Shown piece by piece: positions 5,859 through 48,952 of a stretch of 64,000 bases of DNA. Origin of the DNA: an uncultured Candidatus Saccharibacteria bacterium (GTDB lineage Bacteria > Patescibacteriota > Saccharimonadia > Saccharimonadales > AWTP1-31); assembly GCA_964536985.1 (NCBI GenBank), contig CAZIBG010000002.1, forward strand, positions 18,738 through 82,737, written 5' to 3'. Positions within the stretch are counted from its first letter, which is position 1; each line of letters starts with the position of its first letter. The notes beneath the pieces were generated by a model that worked only from the letters and a program-made list of their open reading frames with translations, ran no database searches and was not told where the DNA came from. The translations under genes were made by a program, and so were the position numbers.

Positions 5859-6566
5859 CTACTCTTCTGAGAATAGGTATTTACAAAACTCTGGTCCACG
5901 TTCGGAAACACTTGTAATGCTTTCGTCGATAACTACATCCACTCCAAATTCGCCAACATCTTTTTTAGCGAACTGTTCTTCGGTTTCATGATGTACGAAA
6001 ACGGAGTCTCCGTTTTGGCTACTGAAGCCGTTAACTTGGTTTTCTAGTTCGGCTTTAAGCGCGCAGGATAGTTCCTCTTGGTCGGAATATCTACTATCTG
6101 TAATGAAACTCGCTTTTTTTACCTGAACAACATCACCTATAAGCTGTAACCGTAATTTGGTGGTGTCTTCGAACTCTTCTGGCTCAAGAGCCCACACTTC
6201 GCCAGTTACACCAAATCTAGCACCAGAACTGGTAGTCAAAATCTTATCGAGAGGCTTATGATCGAACTCCTCAACCACGTCAGCTTTGTCGGCTATTGTC
6301 ATGGCTTTGCGGATTGTTGGTATTAAGCCAATTGTAACGCCTAGAATAACTGGTGCGAGTGCCACGCAAGCAGCTTTCTTGAGCTGCTCACGAGAAGGAG
6401 TCCTTCTTTTCTTTTCTATAGGAGCGGCGGCGGCGCGCTCTGCTAACCAGTCGTTGCGGGCAGATGTCACAAAGCGTTCTAGCTCATGATCGCCAATGCT
6501 ACGGTAGTTTTGGTCCATGACTAGATCTCTTCCCACACCTTTTTTTGCGCTTCTAGTAAATCCCAA
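5859..6566 (-). CDS. Hypothetical membrane-anchored protein (copy 2)
   Basis: Identical to 1621..2328. Confidence 0.45.
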   Translation of the reverse strand: MGFTRSAKKGVGRDLVMDQNYRSIGDHELERFVTSARNDWLAERAAAAPIEKKRRTPSREQLKKAACVALAPVILGVTIGLIPTIRKAMTIADKADVVEEFDHKPLDKILTTSSGARFGVTGEVWALEPEEFEDTTKLRLQLIGDVVQVKKASFITDSRYSDQEELSCALKAELENQVNGFSSQNGDSVFVHHETEEQFAKKDVGEFGVDVVIDESITSVSERGPEFCKYLFSEE

Positions 6567-7990
6567 CCGGCCCAGTTTGGCACATCCGCAACAGCAACAA
6601 AGACGCCGTCAGGATACGTATTGTCACGTTCTTCTTCTGCAACACGATACTCCTGATGTACTCCTGTAATTTCTGCACCAGAGCCTCCGGCAACAATTTT
6701 GAGTGCTCGCATGAACTCATCCATGCCTCTGTTGTCGAAATTTAACAAGTCATAGTCTGGCATGCCGTCTTCGCTAAAACCTGAACCGCGGGTGGTCATA
6801 GTTAGTATCTGTCGATTCTCTTCGTCAAAATGCAAACGCACGTAATTGTTGTAGTCGAGTCCGCCAACATTCACATCTAACTCCGGGTAATCTAGCCGGT
6901 TTTGACTGATAGAATTATTCAGATATAGACCGTCAACTTCCGCTATATAGGGGTCGTCGACACTTTTCTTATAGCCAACTTCGTAGCGCGAAAGCATCCT
7001 ATCTAACACCGTACTTTTTGCTTCTAAGGCCAGATATATTGCTTCGTCGGCAATATTATCCTGGTCAACAAGCTGTGCTAGAAGACCCGATAAATAATCG
7101 GATGTTCTGTCGCCTAAACCAGGCTTTGAATGGTTAAGCATGTCTACCAGGGCAGTTATTGTAGGCAAAGTACGTGATTCCAAACTATATGTATCAGAAT
7201 CTGTTCTTATGCGTCGTGCTGCCTGTGCGGGAGTCATCGCCCCTCGTGTAGCAGCCTCGGTATATCGATCTTGTTGCTCAGTCTCATCAAAATTAGTTCG
7301 CGCCCAAAGGTCAGCAACGTCAGCGGGGTTCAGTGTTAATAAATCCATAAATTCATCAATAACAAGATTTCTATTCTTTGGGTCTAGCGGACAGTCTTTT
7401 TCAAATTGGCTTATGATATGATCCGTTAAAAGATATTCAGCGCCATGACTATGACGAGTTGCGTCTTGACCAATATAAATTCCAAAAACTTTATCACCAC
7501 CAATAGACATCGATCGCTCACCCTCAAGTCCGTCGAATGAAATTTGAATAGTGTCAACCTTGATGGCATCTAGAAGTTCGCGGGGCATTTTATCTACAAA
7601 GTTAAAAAAGCTTCTGAGTGCATAATCTGCGTCTTCACGCTTCTCGCCAGCTAGTGTTCCGATGTTTCTGTCAAAACTGTAGCCGGTAGTTGCAATTCTG
7701 CTATTTACGGTTTCGACTAGAGCACCAGTTTCCGCCTCTTCGCCGAGATCTCCAATACCCAAGCCAACTTCCACGGGTTTTTCGCCGGCAGTCTTTAGAT
7801 AATCATAGGTTTGGTACGTAAGGGCGTCACGTTCAAGGGTTGACATACGGCAAGCCACAGCACCAATCGGCTGTGTAGATAGTTCTGGACTTCGGTCGGC
7901 GCTGTTTATTGCGCTCTCCGTGGATACAGACGGGATTAGGCTAAGTGCTGCGATTGTTGCACCGGCACGTAACATATCGATGTTTTTCAT
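6521..7990 (-). CDS. Hypothetical secreted protein (copy 2)
   Basis: Identical to 2283..3752. Confidence 0.55.
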   Translation of the reverse strand: MKNIDMLRAGATIAALSLIPSVSTESAINSADRSPELSTQPIGAVACRMSTLERDALTYQTYDYLKTAGEKPVEVGLGIGDLGEEAETGALVETVNSRIATTGYSFDRNIGTLAGEKREDADYALRSFFNFVDKMPRELLDAIKVDTIQISFDGLEGERSMSIGGDKVFGIYIGQDATRHSHGAEYLLTDHIISQFEKDCPLDPKNRNLVIDEFMDLLTLNPADVADLWARTNFDETEQQDRYTEAATRGAMTPAQAARRIRTDSDTYSLESRTLPTITALVDMLNHSKPGLGDRTSDYLSGLLAQLVDQDNIADEAIYLALEAKSTVLDRMLSRYEVGYKKSVDDPYIAEVDGLYLNNSISQNRLDYPELDVNVGGLDYNNYVRLHFDEENRQILTMTTRGSGFSEDGMPDYDLLNFDNRGMDEFMRALKIVAGGSGAEITGVHQEYRVAEEERDNTYPDGVFVAVADVPNWAGWDLLEAQKKVWEEI

Positions 7991-8147
7991 AAATTTCCTT
8001 CGTGTTATTTTCTGGTAGAGAGGGTCCAGAACACTCAGGATATGAGAGTTGCTAGTTGCCCGGTTACGCTACTGACTCCACAATACTCAAGCGTCCAAAT
8101 ACGAGTATTGCTTCACGGTCTACAACCAAATTACTTTGATTAGAAAT

Positions 8148-8229: not shown

Positions 8230-8256
8230 AAACACCACCAGCTGTCTCTCCTGTCG

Positions 8257-8310
8257 TCCGGTTACGCTATTGGCTCATTCACGTATAAGCGTCCAGATTA
8301 CTACGTGAGT
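8257..8310. repeat. Motif B, related to leader motif A; it lies inside the candidate sRNA unit
   Basis: tccggttacgctattggctcattcacgtataagcgtccagattactacgtgagt, aligned to the A motif. Confidence 0.5.
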
Positions 8311-8385
8311 TCATCGCCTACGACAGAAATTGAGTAGGTGGTTCTTATTTTATATCCTATTGATTAGCGTTGTCAAGTATATGAA

Positions 8386-34378: not shown

Positions 34379-34456
34379 AATTATCTCCTTCAGAGGTTAT
34401 GGAACTCGTCTCCACAAACTAAAATAAACACCTGGTGGTGTATGAGTTTAAGAGGG

Positions 34457-34541
34457 AGAATTCGTCCCGGTTTCGCTACTTGCTCCCCGTGTATCCAAGC
34501 GACCAGATACAGATATACGGATCATTGCATGACTTTACGTC
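34457..34541. repeat. 85-bp exact direct repeat, copy 1 of 2
   Basis: Identical to 37370..37454. It contains the imperfect hairpin ccgtgtatc...gatatacgg. Confidence 0.9.
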
Positions 34542-37317: not shown

Positions 37318-37369
37318 AGTTAATACTCCAACTAATATTTATTAGTGGGCGAAATATGCAATTATGCAA

Positions 37370-37454
37370 AGAATTCGTCCCGGTTTCGCTACTTGCTCCC
37401 CGTGTATCCAAGCGACCAGATACAGATATACGGATCATTGCATGACTTTACGTC
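37370..37454. repeat. 85-bp exact direct repeat, copy 2 of 2
   Basis: Identical to 34457..34541. It sits about 50 nt upstream of the cassette's first start codon and is flanked by AT-rich DNA. Confidence 0.9.
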
Positions 37455-45251: not shown

Positions 45252-46520
45252 TTAATCTTGCAGCAGATAATCGTCGCACAATTTTTTGAAAATAGCGTTT
45301 GTCCAGCCAAATCCAGTCTGACTTGGGTATACACCTTCTACTGGATGCTTATGGGGCTTAACAACGTTGTACTTTTCTAGGAAAACTCCATGCTGCTCGT
45401 ACCAAGCCAAGTTAGTCCGCAGCCATTTACGTGCAATTCGCTCGGCCTCTTCGTGATAGCCGTAGTTCTTGAGCCCTTCGATCACTGCGTAGTGCAGTGG
45501 CGCCCAGCCATTAGGATGAGCCCACTGAGTTTTGAGCGATCCAAAGATACTCATGTCTATCAACGGTCGGGTAGTAGTAGATAGCCCGCCAGAATGTTCG
45601 AACTTCTCAATATTCTTAACCATCCGGGCAGCTTGTTCGTCACTGGCTAGCCCCAACCACATAGGGTAAAAACCTGCTAACGACCAGACGTCTCCACCTT
45701 GGCCTTTGTTGTAGTTGTAGTCAAAGTAAAACCCTCGACGTGTATGCCACATGTACTTGTTTACTTCGTGTTTGCGACTCGCCGCTTTTGCGGACCAATG
45801 CTTTGCTTCTTTTGGATCGTCCAGCTCACCGGCCGCCCAAGCAAAATCGGCCTCGTATTTATACAGTAAAGCGTTGAGATCAACAGGCAGATAGTCTAGA
45901 CACTTTCGTTCAAACCGGGTGGTCATATCCCAGCCACTTTCGGCTTCGGCCATATCATGCAGAACATTAATGTCGTAGTAGCGACTGAGTCCATGATGCA
46001 CTTTATGCCAAAATGGATGGAGTTCACTGGTCCAGACTTCTGTGTATTCCGCCTTAGCAATGTCCATACGTTCTTTTAGCCAAGCTTTGTCTTTGTGGCC
46101 AGTTTCGTAGATAAGCCTGATGTACATGGTCAAGATTGGCGGTTGGGAGTGGCTCATGTGATACATCTGATTTGCATTAGGGATAAATCTAAAACGCTTA
46201 AACAATTGCAAAAGATTCTCTAGCATTCCCTCGGCCATATGTTGGTGCTTGGTACCAACTAGTGCTAGTGAGGTAAAATAACTATCCCAGTAGTACTGTT
46301 CTTTGAGTGTGAACTTTGCTTTTGGATCAGCTGCCGGAACAATATAAGGATAGGGCAGACCAATTACCGTGCCTTGGTCTTCCTTTGCCTGGTGCTCCAG
46401 TACCTTCCAATGATCTTCGATATAATCGAGGGCATGAGCAATGTGTGGAATATCAATATGACCCTGCCTGCCAGCAATTTTTCGGATCAGTTTTTTAGCT
46501 AAGTTCTGTTTAGGAAGCAT
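45252..46520 (-). CDS. Glycoside hydrolase, trehalase-like (six-hairpin fold; GH37/GH63-like)
   Basis: 422 aa with EQYYWDSYF, close to trehalase signature 1 (...YYWDSY). Confidence 0.5.
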   Translation of the reverse strand: MLPKQNLAKKLIRKIAGRQGHIDIPHIAHALDYIEDHWKVLEHQAKEDQGTVIGLPYPYIVPAADPKAKFTLKEQYYWDSYFTSLALVGTKHQHMAEGMLENLLQLFKRFRFIPNANQMYHMSHSQPPILTMYIRLIYETGHKDKAWLKERMDIAKAEYTEVWTSELHPFWHKVHHGLSRYYDINVLHDMAEAESGWDMTTRFERKCLDYLPVDLNALLYKYEADFAWAAGELDDPKEAKHWSAKAASRKHEVNKYMWHTRRGFYFDYNYNKGQGGDVWSLAGFYPMWLGLASDEQAARMVKNIEKFEHSGGLSTTTRPLIDMSIFGSLKTQWAHPNGWAPLHYAVIEGLKNYGYHEEAERIARKWLRTNLAWYEQHGVFLEKYNVVKPHKHPVEGVYPSQTGFGWTNAIFKKLCDDYLLQD

Positions 46521-46560
46521 CCTCTTATGCTAAGCCAATAGCCAGTAAGGAGCAAGTATT

Positions 46561-47184
46561 CTATCCGTGGAATTGCGCTCTGGTTTCGATCCCTCTATCT
46601 GCGATGCGAGCGAGTGTTTGTTGGACCATTGCTTCGAGTCCTAAGCTACCATCAACAGGAATAACAATATCAACCAATTCATCCGCTTCGGAAGGCAAAA
46701 CAAGTTCAGAATGGAGCTTATCAATTGTCTTTAGTGGACCACCGTCACCCCACGAATGCCGAGGTGCAATAAGTGTTTTTGTGTCGATCCATCGCTCCAT
46801 GCGTTCACGAGCAAGCTTAACATCAACTTCTACTGCAAAGGCAACAACAGTAGAATCTGTGTCCTTTGCCCATTGGATTGGGCGCTCAGCACGACCTTCC
46901 GGAGTATTAAAGAAGGCGTCGCATACCACATCCTCGTCTCGCACTAAGGCTTGTATAGTTCTATCGCGTACCGTTCGCTTTACTTCCGCCTTGCAATCCC
47001 GATTGCGTCGAGTTCGATCGGCATATGCTGTCTGCTTGAGCCTATCCTGGGACACCAACACAGCACCAAGGCCATGTGCCACTAAGTCGCCGAATTCTTG
47101 TTCCGTACCTCCAGGCACACCAGCTTTGAAGAATATAACCGGCTCGAATTCTTCGTGACCATCTACTTTATAAATTTTAGGCAT
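46561..47184 (-). CDS. Hypothetical protein with a degenerate P-loop-like motif
   Basis: 207 aa. GVPGGTEQE sits where kinases have GxPGSGKST, so it is probably not an active NTPase. Confidence 0.3.
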   Translation of the reverse strand: MPKIYKVDGHEEFEPVIFFKAGVPGGTEQEFGDLVAHGLGAVLVSQDRLKQTAYADRTRRNRDCKAEVKRTVRDRTIQALVRDEDVVCDAFFNTPEGRAERPIQWAKDTDSTVVAFAVEVDVKLARERMERWIDTKTLIAPRHSWGDGGPLKTIDKLHSELVLPSEADELVDIVIPVDGSLGLEAMVQQTLARIADRGIETRAQFHG

Positions 47185-47225
47185 AAATTATATATTACAC
47201 CATAAATTACAAAATTACGAGAATA

Positions 47226-47906
47226 TTATGTAGCTAAAACTTCACCGGGCTGGAGATACCTAGTGTGGCCAGTGGTGACCTTGTCTGCCAAAGCTCCGAT
47301 AAACGGAGCTGCCACGTCCAGAATAAACGGTTCTCCTCCAGAGTTTGTATAGCGGACCCATTGGTGTCCCGATCGGTCGTTAGGGCTGTCGATTGGTGAG
47401 CGAAAATTTCTATGGATTCGTGGTGTTCCACTTAGAACACCATCTTGTTTAAATAACTCAAGTAATGCTCCAACCGCGAGTGACTGTTCGCGGCAGACAC
47501 CCGTTCCATCATCAATGTACTCAGAGAGCTCGATCTTTGCGTCTTTTGGCATTCGATCCTGCCCATAGGAGCGACGGGCAACCCTTCCCTCAGTAGCCTG
47601 TTCACCCTCTTTGGAGTAACGCATATTGTCGTACACCGTTCGGAATACCGAATCCAAAACGTAATCCCTCTGAAGCATGCCACGAACACTAGCACGTGCC
47701 ATAGCCTCGGCCTTGAGCCTCTGGTAGGCTCGTGGATATTTTATAGGATCAACGACAATTGCCGGGGCATGAACTCGAGGGCCGTACATGTCGATACCAC
47801 CAATGATAGTGGTGTTGCGAGTGATGCGGAGGCGACCACCAAAGTATGGTCCAGGTATGGATGCTGGGGCCGGTGAATATCCCCAATTAAATCGTTGTTC
47901 TGCCAT
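47226..47906 (-). CDS. Hypothetical protein, possibly a transglutaminase-like cysteine protease
   Basis: 226 aa. GVCREQSLAVGALLE ... GHQWVRY ... ILDV resembles the Cys-His-Asp transglutaminase core (GxCRDFA...HAWVEVY). Confidence 0.35.
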   Translation of the reverse strand: MAEQRFNWGYSPAPASIPGPYFGGRLRITRNTTIIGGIDMYGPRVHAPAIVVDPIKYPRAYQRLKAEAMARASVRGMLQRDYVLDSVFRTVYDNMRYSKEGEQATEGRVARRSYGQDRMPKDAKIELSEYIDDGTGVCREQSLAVGALLELFKQDGVLSGTPRIHRNFRSPIDSPNDRSGHQWVRYTNSGGEPFILDVAAPFIGALADKVTTGHTRYLQPGEVLAT

Positions 47907-47954
47907 AATACATATTATAATATATTCTAACCATATTTACAATTTCTCACGTGA

Positions 47955-48470
47955 TTGCAGTGGAGCTGGCGGGTACTCTACGATGATATAATTAAAAATA
48001 TGAAGATCTGTCGTAATTGCAATCAAAACTTCGAGCCAAGCAGTAAGCATCTTGATTGTCCATCATGCAGATACCACCTTTCTAAGAAGGTCCTTTGTCA
48101 TTCGTGTAAAGTACATTTTCATTCTCCAAGATATCAGAACTGCCGCAGTTGTACGACGAAACTTAAGCCAGACTACGGAAAAGGCTCTTATATAAAAAAT
48201 GGCTACAGAATGGTGTTTTCTGCCGAACATCCTAAAGTCAAAGATAAACGCAGTAAGTACATATTCGAACACGTGTTAGTGATGGAGGAACATATTGGCA
48301 GATACTTGCTTGATAGAGAGAACGTGCACCATCTGAACGGTGTCCGTGATGATAACAGATTAAAAAACCTAGAGCTCTGGATAAAAACCCAGCCAAGCGG
48401 GATTCGGGTAGAGGATGCCGTAAACTGGGCGCATGAGATTATCGAAAGATACTCCAAACCTCGAGAATAG
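47955..48470 (+). CDS. HNH endonuclease with an N-terminal Cys4 zinc-finger cluster
   Basis: HNH motif (NVHHLNGVRDDNRLKNLELW) and multiple CxxC pairs. The true start is probably at 48000 (MKICRNC). Confidence 0.7.
   Translation: MQWSWRVLYDDIIKNMKICRNCNQNFEPSSKHLDCPSCRYHLSKKVLCHSCKVHFHSPRYQNCRSCTTKLKPDYGKGSYIKNGYRMVFSAEHPKVKDKRSKYIFEHVLVMEEHIGRYLLDRENVHHLNGVRDDNRLKNLELWIKTQPSGIRVEDAVNWAHEIIERYSKPRE
47958..47974. repeat. Left copy of an imperfect direct repeat flanking the HNH cassette
   Basis: cagTGGAGCTGgCGGgt versus atgTGGAGCTGcCGGtg at 48499..48515, matching at 13 of 15 core positions. Confidence 0.4.
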
Positions 48471-48473
48471 AAA

Positions 48474-48495
48474 AACTCGAGATTACTCTCGAGTT
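48474..48495 (+). terminator. Terminator-like hairpin after the HNH gene
   Basis: Perfect 9-bp stem aactcgaga / tctcgagtt with loop ttac. No strong T-run follows. Confidence 0.45.
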
Positions 48496-48498
48496 CTT

Positions 48499-48515
48499 AT
48501 GGTGGAGCTGCCGGT
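48499..48515. repeat. Right copy of the imperfect direct repeat flanking the HNH cassette; overlaps the tRNA-like fragment
   Basis: See 47958..47974. Confidence 0.4.
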
Positions 48516-48532
48516 GATCGCAACCGGGTCCG
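48500..48532 (-). other. tRNA 3'-end-like fragment (T-arm, acceptor 3' strand and CCA), possibly an integration-site remnant
   Basis: Minus strand reads ccggt-tgcgatc-accgg-cagctcc-a-cca. No matching 5' acceptor strand (ggagctg) lies upstream, and the T-loop is non-canonical. Confidence 0.3.
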
Positions 48533-48952
48533 TCAGTTAACATGGCTCAATGACTACAGGCTTAGTTTGTCTTATATTTCTTTAGCCAAAATGCTAGAGA
48601 CAAACAAAAAACATGCTGGCTGCAGCCCTAAGGCTTAGCTATACGTAGGGGCAACTACGTATAGAGCAATCAGAAGTATATAGCGCTGACACAAAATATC
48701 TGATGTCTCTTGTGAAGCGGCATCCTAATTAAATTAGGCTGCTAGTGCGTAGTCTGCGTTTCGAGCGAAAATTTCTTTTACGCTTGTTAGCAAGTCTGCG
48801 CGAGCTGTAGAATTTTCTGCAACTGTGTTGTTTGATCCAGCTAACGTGTAGATCAATCCGGCCTGCCATTTGAGTCTGTTAAAGTCCAACGTCGAGCTTA
48901 AAATTCAGCCCCATTAAGCAGTATTATATCATAAATTAAGCATTAGTGATAT

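Follow-up and report, generated by a model that had tools for sequence, protein, structure and literature searches.

A putative homing-endonuclease cassette at the 3' end of the tmRNA gene of a Saccharibacterium

A 64,000-nt stretch of the genome of an uncultured Candidatus Saccharibacteria bacterium (contig CAZIBG010000002.1, positions 18,738 to 82,737), which we refer to in its entirety as the window, carries a small HNH endonuclease gene between two short direct repeats that resemble the 3' end of a tRNA. This locus raises the question of which RNA gene the repeats derive from, which of the two copies is alive, and how a nuclease gene came to lie between them. We attribute both repeats to ssrA, the gene for transfer-messenger RNA (tmRNA), and we put at roughly 75% the probability that a cassette of about 550 bp, with an HNH_3 endonuclease gene as its sole gene, has entered the 3' end of an intact ssrA gene of this Saccharibacterium. 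The spread of the cassette would be driven by homing of this endonuclease.

The tmRNA gene and its live 3' end

A scan with Rfam models found ssrA at 48500-48912 on the minus strand of the window. The gene is full-length: its match to the tmRNA family RF00023 covers model positions 1-374 and scores 78.5 bits (E 8.5e-29), the gathering score being 47. The initial annotation of this DNA, made from its letters, had described the same region as about 450 bp of decayed, non-coding sequence. The gene and its signals are the following:

48500..48912, minus strand: ssrA, intact tmRNA gene (Rfam RF00023 match, sequence checked)
48912-48906, minus strand: 5' acceptor strand of ssrA, GGGGCTG, about 400 nt upstream of the 3' end
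48500..48510, minus strand: acceptor 3' strand CAGCTCC (48510-48504), discriminator A and CCA, the core of the right-hand repeat
48511..48527, minus strand: live T-arm CCGGT-TGCGATC-ACCGG, of non-native type (Rfam alignment and sequence)
48734..48820, minus strand: tag reading frame of 28 aa (resume codon placed by the Rfam alignment; translated)
48923..48931, minus strand: candidate extended -10 element of ssrA, TGATATAAT, 10 nt upstream of the mature 5' end (read from the sequence)
48471..48498, no strand assigned: hairpin AAGAACTCGAGA-GTAA-TCTCGAGTTTTT, directly past CCA, between the convergent ssrA and HNH genes

The minus-strand string ccggt-tgcgatc-accgg-cagctcc-a-cca, earlier recognised as the end of a tRNA-like fold, is indeed present. 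Its 5' half, which had been declared missing, is the GGGGCTG of the list, placed as in every tmRNA; it pairs with CAGCTCC in a tRNA-Ala-like acceptor stem that includes G3:U70, and ACCA is encoded. The right-hand repeat is the functional, live 3' end of ssrA and not a scar. The two palindromes noticed in the supposedly decayed DNA turn out to be tmRNA helices: according to the Rfam alignment, tatacgtag..ctacgtata is a pseudoknot hairpin and cctaatt-aa-attagg is the hairpin (48720-48742) that holds the stop codon of the tag. The tag frame runs from the resume codon GCA (48820-48818) to the stop codon TAA (48736-48734) and encodes AENSTARADLLTSVKEIFARNADYALAA, whose end, YALAA, is of the hydrophobic ...ALAA kind.

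The element TGATATAAT at 48923-48931 is the putative promoter element of ssrA, and a similar TGGTATAAT precedes the tmRNA gene of a syntenic relative described below (L108). At the other end of the gene, RNA folding predicts that the hairpin at 48471-48498 terminates ssrA intrinsically (-15.3 kcal/mol, z -5.07, for the tmRNA strand) and, more weakly, the HNH gene (-11.8 kcal/mol, z -2.4, for the HNH strand). A simple terminator scan did not flag this hairpin, though it is strong by folding.

ARAGORN called neither a tRNA nor a tmRNA in the window, a false negative that is overturned by Rfam. The T-loop does not follow the canonical TTCRANY; it reads TGCGATC in the window and GGCAGTA in most Saccharibacteria, whose tmRNAs have a conserved non-canonical T-loop, GGCAGTA or GGCGGTA (window; L019-L029; L099-L178). 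ARAGORN also called no tmRNA in the 11 Saccharibacteria genome loci L019-L029, where Rfam or motif mapping finds them; the non-canonical T-loop is a trait of the clade and the probable reason for these misses. The tmRNA of the window remains a member of RF00023 despite its T-loop because the covariance model scores the full length. Annotation pipelines that depend on ARAGORN will report Saccharibacteria genomes as lacking tmRNA, and an essential gene can then be read as junk DNA, as happened at 48500-48912.

The HNH gene and the displaced end of ssrA

The gene that faces ssrA across the hairpin had been proposed to encode an HNH/zinc-finger protein starting at 48000, and the Pfam match to HNH_3 (PF13392; E 1.1e-7, 31.8 bits against a cut-off of 24.8) bears this out. 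The protein contains two N-terminal CxxC...CxxC zinc ribbons, the HNH_3 nuclease domain and a C-terminal helix. It keeps the residues that are invariant in the family (H91, H110, H111, N119, N123 and six Cys) as well as a nearly invariant seventh Cys, C51. It matches phrog_20891 of PHROGs (E 5.7e-27), and its AlphaFold2 model (predicted local distance difference test, pLDDT, 91) retrieved 46 structural matches to phage HNH or homing endonucleases from BFVD. The protein of the window groups with these phage HNH and homing endonucleases. The gene, its surroundings and the proposed limits of the cassette are as follows:

48000..48470, plus strand: HNH endonuclease gene, 156 aa, antisense to ssrA (Pfam, PHROGs, fold model)
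47984..47992, plus strand: putative extended -10 element of the HNH gene, TGATATAAT, ending 7 nt before the ATG (from the sequence)
47960..47977, minus strand: original 3' end of ssrA, displaced (agrees with the native end at 18/18 positions; unique in the window)
47978..48527, no strand assigned: inserted cassette of about 550 bp, as placed by analogy with the phages MulchMansion and LilMartin and by the position of the displaced fragment
47914..47942, minus strand: promoter-like TTGTAA-17-TATAAT (promoter scan, 10/12 matches) of the native gene of 226 aa at 47226-47906

The element TGATATAAT at 47984-47992 is the likely promoter of the HNH gene, and the distance of 7 nt between the -10 box and the ATG suggests a leaderless mRNA. 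TATAAT-like boxes are found in the corresponding position of HNH relatives. An identical 10-mer, ATGATATAAT, which contains the extended -10 box, occurs in the promoters of both genes in inverted orientation, at 47983-47992 (plus) and 48923-48932 (minus).

The imperfect direct repeats that had been noticed on both sides of the HNH gene, GTGGAGCTG(G/C)CGG, lie at 47960-47972 and 48502-48514; these are the only two occurrences in the 64 kb, against 0.08 expected, and a repeat search extends the repeat to 28 nt. On the minus strand, 47960-47977 reads AGTACCCGCCAGCTCCAC, that is, AGTA-CCCGC-CAGCTCC-A-C: the last 4 nt of a T-loop, the 3' strand of the T-stem, the acceptor 3' strand, the discriminator and the first C of CCA. 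The commonest native 3' end of ssrA at empty sites in Saccharibacteria is GCGGG-GGCAGTA-CCCGC-CAGCTCC-ACCA, and the left repeat of the window matches it at 18 of 18 positions. By this match, the left repeat is the true scar, the displaced original end of ssrA. The proposal of an attachment-site-like remnant holds in this sense for the left repeat, and fails for the right one.

The displaced end recurs in relatives. A conserved element of about 22 nt, TGGTGGAGCTGGCGGGTACTCC, precedes the HNH start by 30-45 nt at 11 of the 14 distinct Saccharibacteria HNH loci (genomes and Logan contigs, with the window included); it is absent in L014/L015 and in L021. Its reverse complement, GGAGTA-CCCGC-CAGCTCC-A-CCA, is the 3' end of a tmRNA, and the intergenic DNA around it has diverged between the relatives. 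The metagenome locus L106 also has an element of this type, and in L026 the live end and the displaced copy have a perfect 18-mer in common. Beyond the displaced copy, several loci have a terminator hairpin, probably the one that originally served ssrA.

The cassette comprises a replacement T-arm, acceptor strand and CCA, a terminator, and the antisense HNH gene with its promoter; its boundary on the tmRNA side would fall at 48527, by analogy with the phage pair described next. Read along the tmRNA strand, the order is the tmRNA body, the T-arm, acceptor strand and CCA of the cassette, the terminator, the antisense HNH gene, the 18-nt displaced end and the native genes, whose flank begins at the promoter-like site at 47914-47942. 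The HNH gene is the only open reading frame (ORF) between the repeats, and no integrase or recombinase was found among its neighbours in the window.

The insertion can be followed to the nucleotide in two phages. The best phage homolog of the HNH protein is the product of gene 182 of Streptomyces phage MulchMansion, with 49% identity over the full length, and this gene is convergent with the phage's own tmRNA gene across a gap of 15 nt. Among 93 phage records that match this region, only MulchMansion has the HNH gene; LilMartin and Angela, whose flanks are 99.4% identical to those of MulchMansion, are without it. The alignment of MulchMansion and LilMartin is identical through ...CAGGAC. Past this point the empty site of LilMartin continues with GCGGG-TTCGACT-CCCGC-CATCTCC-A. 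MulchMansion continues with GGGGG-TTCGAAT-CCCCC-CATCTCC-A, a terminator hairpin and the antisense HNH gene, and only then with the intact native GCGGG-TTCGACT-CCCGC-CATCTCC-A. The insertion point is the 5' edge of the native T-stem. Therefore, the inserted DNA comes with a T-arm and an acceptor strand of its own, and the native copy ends up downstream of it. The architecture of the window is the same.

MulchMansion also carries about 190 nt with a small ORF (gene 183; L219 1255-1434) past the displaced fragment, which LilMartin does not have. More distant phage homologs of the HNH protein adjoin primase/helicase, RNA ligase or MazG genes, in the manner of free-standing homing endonuclease genes.

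Occupied and empty sites in bacteria

A view of the uninterrupted locus comes from L108, a relative with the same order of a major facilitator superfamily (MFS) transporter, ssrA and trehalase and without the HNH gene. Its MFS transporter, 79% identical to that of the window, lies directly upstream of the tmRNA gene, and trehalase and a small acidic protein are encoded downstream. The whole block 45252..48952 had been regarded as accessory. Because L108 has the same neighbourhood without HNH, 45252-47906 is native; its GC content is ordinary, falling only to 0.42-0.44 over the HNH gene. A larger island spanning 45252-48952 was rejected on these two grounds.

The tmRNA of L108 is only about 60% identical to that of the window and has another type of pseudoknot 1, in spite of the similarity of the adjacent MFS proteins. 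This divergence could reflect fast evolution of tmRNA, or the replacement of much of the gene along with a cassette. The tag of the window is long (28 aa) and that of L108 differs (AKSFRAMVNEAISFRNLAPVAA).

To sample ssrA independently of its HNH content, 80 Saccharibacteria-type tmRNA loci were drawn from metagenomes by a pattern in the 5' end of tmRNA. Among the approximately 58 with at least 300 nt of downstream sequence, L106 alone carries HNH. The gene is absent from most relatives, and the repeat does match an RNA gene of this genome, so that the conditions named beforehand as refuting an insertion (no matching RNA gene, and HNH as core genome in all relatives) do not apply. A native T-arm (5-bp stem and GGYRGTR loop) was found in 1 of 15 HNH-occupied alleles and in 52 of 54 empty ones (Fisher p about 1e-11), in a comparison made without correction for how the loci are related, on a set assembled by two different routes. 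In the window, the displaced fragment carries the native CCCGC strand and the live T-arm does not; the live T-arm is of a non-native type and probably arrived with the cassette. In L106, the live T-stem strand is CCCCGC versus CCCAC in the displaced copy, which also suggests an imported T-arm.

The same site is used by other inserts. In L147 the live end and a displaced copy with its terminator enclose a GIY-YIG nuclease gene (84 aa; Pfam E 2.6e-18):

387-1010 of L147, tmRNA-oriented coordinates: GIY-YIG cassette with the architecture of the HNH cassette

The tmRNAs of L147 and of the HNH-bearing L024 are the most similar in the set (87% identical). No fewer than two families of nucleases have thus come, by convergence, to use these few nucleotides of ssrA. 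In L150 and L151 the tmRNA 3' end is duplicated (70 and 168 nt) with no ORF, and these duplications look like scars of lost cassettes.

We then consider the HNH family as a whole. An alignment of 43 members was used to scan one genome per species (185,579 species genomes), and 239 loci were found. The best 80 of these comprise 11 metagenome-assembled genomes of Saccharibacteria, which places the window in this group as well, and others mostly from Actinomycetota. They were examined for tmRNA genes by ARAGORN, Rfam and motif mapping combined:

64 of 80 loci: convergent tmRNA whose 3' end falls no more than 200 nt from where the HNH match ends
4 of 80 loci: co-oriented tmRNA ending just upstream of the HNH gene
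3 of 80 loci: tmRNA 0.6-1.2 kb from the HNH gene
9 of 80 loci: no tmRNA found

A tmRNA gene is thus present at 71 of the 80 loci, and since tmRNA is a single-copy gene, this linkage is far beyond chance. Among the nine loci without tmRNA, L056 offers too little downstream sequence to tell, and L085 has a tRNA-His gene at that spot. The family member of L085 ends inside this gene, on the same strand (1949-2023), and may represent a target switch within the family.

The nearest homologs (49-61% identity) lie in different gene neighbourhoods and all abut a tmRNA gene. In L012, L013, L014, L015 and L018 the HNH gene is convergent with tmRNA across gaps of 3-29 nt, in L011 it is co-oriented and downstream, and in L016 it abuts a permuted two-piece tmRNA, with its ORF overlapping the acceptor piece at the 5' end of the permuted gene. 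In each geometry examined in detail, HNH adjoins the segment of the T-arm and the acceptor 3' strand. The contig of L016 is phage-like (6001-6804), with an N6/N4 methyltransferase and a DEAD helicase adjoining; HNH and tmRNA are on one strand, and the tmRNA coding piece, GGGGGTGAC, begins 3 nt past the HNH stop. No integrase was called or annotated within a few kb around the HNH gene at related loci.

The HNH clade is common to Actinomycetota, their phages and Saccharibacteria, which live as epibionts on Actinomycetota. The distribution of this family may be a marker for exchange among these three groups.

In Actinomycetota, an inverted copy of the acceptor 3' strand and an inner hairpin lie within the 40 nt that separate the HNH C-terminus from the tmRNA 3' end. 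The inverted copy covaries with the acceptor (CAGCTCCA/TGGAGCTG, CATCTCCA/TGGAGATG, CACCTCCA/TGGAGGTG), so that a long hairpin takes in the tmRNA end (L031, L033, L034, L037, L039, L043, L050, L053, L054, L062, L065 and L098, at about 1960-2010). This junction segment is translated as a ..SSNNA.. tail of the HNH ORF.

Some further observations concern the window and its public copies. Public contigs of the same strain are identical to the window. A truncated HNH protein of 86 aa (L003, P0006) had suggested decay; its DNA is 100% identical to the window and the difference is one of gene calling only, so this candidate was rejected. Several Logan contigs from different samples (L001, L002, L004) end at the 5' end of tmRNA (window about 48883-48909). 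A biological junction there was rejected, as contigs of one sample overlap at this point, and the ends are probably due to assembly branching of co-occurring strains at conserved tmRNA 5' sequence. Elsewhere in the window there are four riboswitch aptamers of the cyclic di-GMP-II type at Rfam gathering scores, all on the minus strand (8049-8132, 8247-8330, 34456-34541 and 37369-37454). Two belong to RF01786 and are in tandem, 115 nt apart, and two to RF03169; this number is seemingly high for 64 kb of a Saccharibacteria genome.

Homing as the proposed mechanism, its alternatives and related systems

We propose that the HNH protein acts as a homing endonuclease that would recognise and cut unoccupied ssrA DNA in the conserved segment of the T-arm and acceptor strand. 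The predicted target is explicit: about 25 bp of the most conserved part of a universal bacterial gene. An occupied allele would then serve as the template for repair, the tmRNA body providing one homology arm and the displaced fragment the other, and the cassette could in this way spread while the essential RNA stays whole. Unlike an intron, the cassette would not be spliced out; it carries a second version of the gene's downstream part, which is also what integrase islands bring to tRNA genes. Cutting of the occupied allele is probably prevented by its altered live T-arm. The tmRNA would be transcribed from its own promoter and end at the terminator of the cassette, and the HNH gene would be transcribed convergently from TGATATAAT at 47984-47992, probably as a leaderless mRNA. 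The earlier alternative of an integrative remnant or a homing insertion is in our opinion better answered by homing: HNH is a foreign insertion flanked by a duplicated gene end, and the integrase-type remnant is contradicted by the lack of an integrase, the size of about 0.5 kb everywhere and the phage pair.

Several results weigh against homing, in addition to the limits of the T-arm comparison given above. At 18-25 nt, the right-hand homology makes a short arm for repair of the RecA type. The two phages show no co-conversion tract, their flanks being identical as far as the insertion itself; the displaced copy of MulchMansion keeps the whole T-arm, which weakens the idea of immunity by truncation of the site. 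A Foldseek comparison of the model with I-HmuI, a solved HNH homing enzyme, was not significant (E 0.95). Within Saccharibacteria, no close pair of occupied and empty sites was found in the sample. Finally, the displaced fragment is mostly absent in Actinomycetota, where 2 of 51 loci reach at least 15/20 (distal repeat scores: L091 19/20, L040 15/20, L045 and L083 14/20), and the conserved junction hairpin covaries with the acceptor stem there, a pattern that would also be compatible with vertical descent over long times, or with domestication, in that phylum.

These Actinomycetota data lead to a first alternative, namely that HNH is a domesticated host factor, inherited vertically and kept beside ssrA by selection, for example because it acts on the ssrA locus or its transcript. 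Besides the missing displaced fragment and the covarying hairpin, the adjacency of both genes is very conserved in Actinomycetota and the ORFs are intact, and domestication in some lineages of this phylum is possible. As an account of the family it is improbable: HNH occupies only about 2% of the Saccharibacteria-type ssrA loci, 1 of 93 related phage records and 239 loci in 185,579 species genomes, the displaced native ends together with imported T-arms record insertion events, and an unrelated nuclease, GIY-YIG, occupies the same site.

Homing also has to be set against a classical integrase-mediated island or prophage in ssrA, from which deletions would have left HNH between attL and attR. 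A regenerated target and a displaced fragment in direct orientation, as seen here, are the signature of islands at tRNA genes (tDNA islands), and ssrA is the most enriched island target (PMC4383910). We consider this origin decidedly unlikely, given that no integrase was found among the neighbours of HNH in the window or within a few kb of it at the related loci, and that a cassette of about 0.5 kb with the same content in distant lineages is not what independent decay would yield. Furthermore, MulchMansion and LilMartin differ at the tmRNA 3' end by the cassette and belong to phages reported without lysogeny genes (PMC10690885).

A very remote alternative places HNH inside a group I intron in the tmRNA T-loop, with the left repeat as the true 3' exon. 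Such introns, some with homing endonuclease genes, are common in the T-loop of tmRNA (PMC11915505), and the displaced fragment does start inside the T-loop. However, a complete T-arm, acceptor strand and CCA, followed by a terminator, all precede the HNH gene on the tmRNA strand; the CCCGC of the left fragment has no GCGGG partner in the tmRNA body and its CCA is missing; no group I intron family scores above the Rfam gathering threshold within the window; and the HNH gene runs antisense. A chance repeat beside a stray phage gene unrelated to the RNA gene, which the shortness of the repeat in the window itself (13 nt, one mismatch) might have allowed, is refuted by the repeat statistics (two matches against 0.08 expected, with the left copy 18/18 to the native consensus), by the recurrence of the element in relatives with diverged intergenic DNA and by the linkage of 71 of 80 homolog loci to tmRNA.

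Beyond this locus, we lean slightly towards a more general proposal, that a widespread class of homing-endonuclease cassettes (the HNH_3 subfamily and, independently, GIY-YIG) homes into the tmRNA genes of bacteria and phages and spares the target in a third way, neither by splicing, as introns and inteins do, nor by intergenic siting. The cassette would bring a replacement T-arm, acceptor strand and terminator, and the native end would be displaced. The literature on HNH genes in tRNA arrays, on ssrA islands and on tmRNA T-loop introns, as far as our incomplete coverage goes, does not mention any cassette with HNH or GIY-YIG at ssrA. MulchMansion and LilMartin are cultivable and differ at the ssrA site by the cassette, and homing is directly testable with them.

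The proposed cassette can be compared with three known systems. Like the tDNA islands collected by Islander and TIGER, the element of the window sits in the 3' part of ssrA, carries a copy of the 3' end, and leaves the original fragment as a direct repeat at its far end. These islands regenerate the target, leave a displaced fragment and use a tyrosine integrase, which Islander requires (PMC4383910). The window has the intact tDNA (live end 48500-48527) and the displaced fragment (47960-47977) on the same strand, bracketing the element, and there is no tyrosine integrase gene inside it, nor inside the related elements; because of this requirement, Islander would discard such cassettes. In contrast to the islands, the cassette has no integrase or attP-type module and consists of a single nuclease gene in about 0.5 kb rather than several kb. 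Moreover, its replacement T-arm differs from the displaced one, so that the two copies do not share an identical core over the T-stem.

The T-loop of tmRNA is a site of group I introns, of which some contain LAGLIDADG genes (PMC11915505). The cassette resembles them in its target, the T-loop and T-arm of ssrA, in its homing-type nuclease gene, and in that tmRNA would stay functional. Unlike them, it has no ribozyme and would not be spliced: with a new 3' end and terminator provided by the insert, the RNA would stop ahead of it. In addition, its nuclease belongs to the HNH_3 or GIY-YIG type and not to the LAGLIDADG type, and is encoded antisense to the RNA. Integrase-requiring island finders and ribozyme-requiring intron finders both miss the cassette.

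Free-standing homing endonuclease genes of phages, such as the seg and mob genes of T4 (for example SegB, in the tRNA region) and the HNH_3 genes of actinophages, are similar in protein family, in size, in their presence or absence between near-identical genomes, and in their placement beside a highly conserved gene that would hold the recognition site. Presence and absence at a fixed site is what we find between MulchMansion and LilMartin or Angela, among the roughly 58 Saccharibacteria loci and in L108, with no near-identical relative of the window among them. Unlike the cassette, free-standing genes are normally intergenic and duplicate no part of the target. The cassette sits within the span of its target gene and carries a replacement for the part that it displaces, and its spread is largely in cellular chromosomes, those of Saccharibacteria and Actinomycetota, and not only in phages. 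The cassette would thus follow the logic of tDNA islands, in which the target is regenerated and a displaced fragment remains, with a homing nuclease where these have an integrase.

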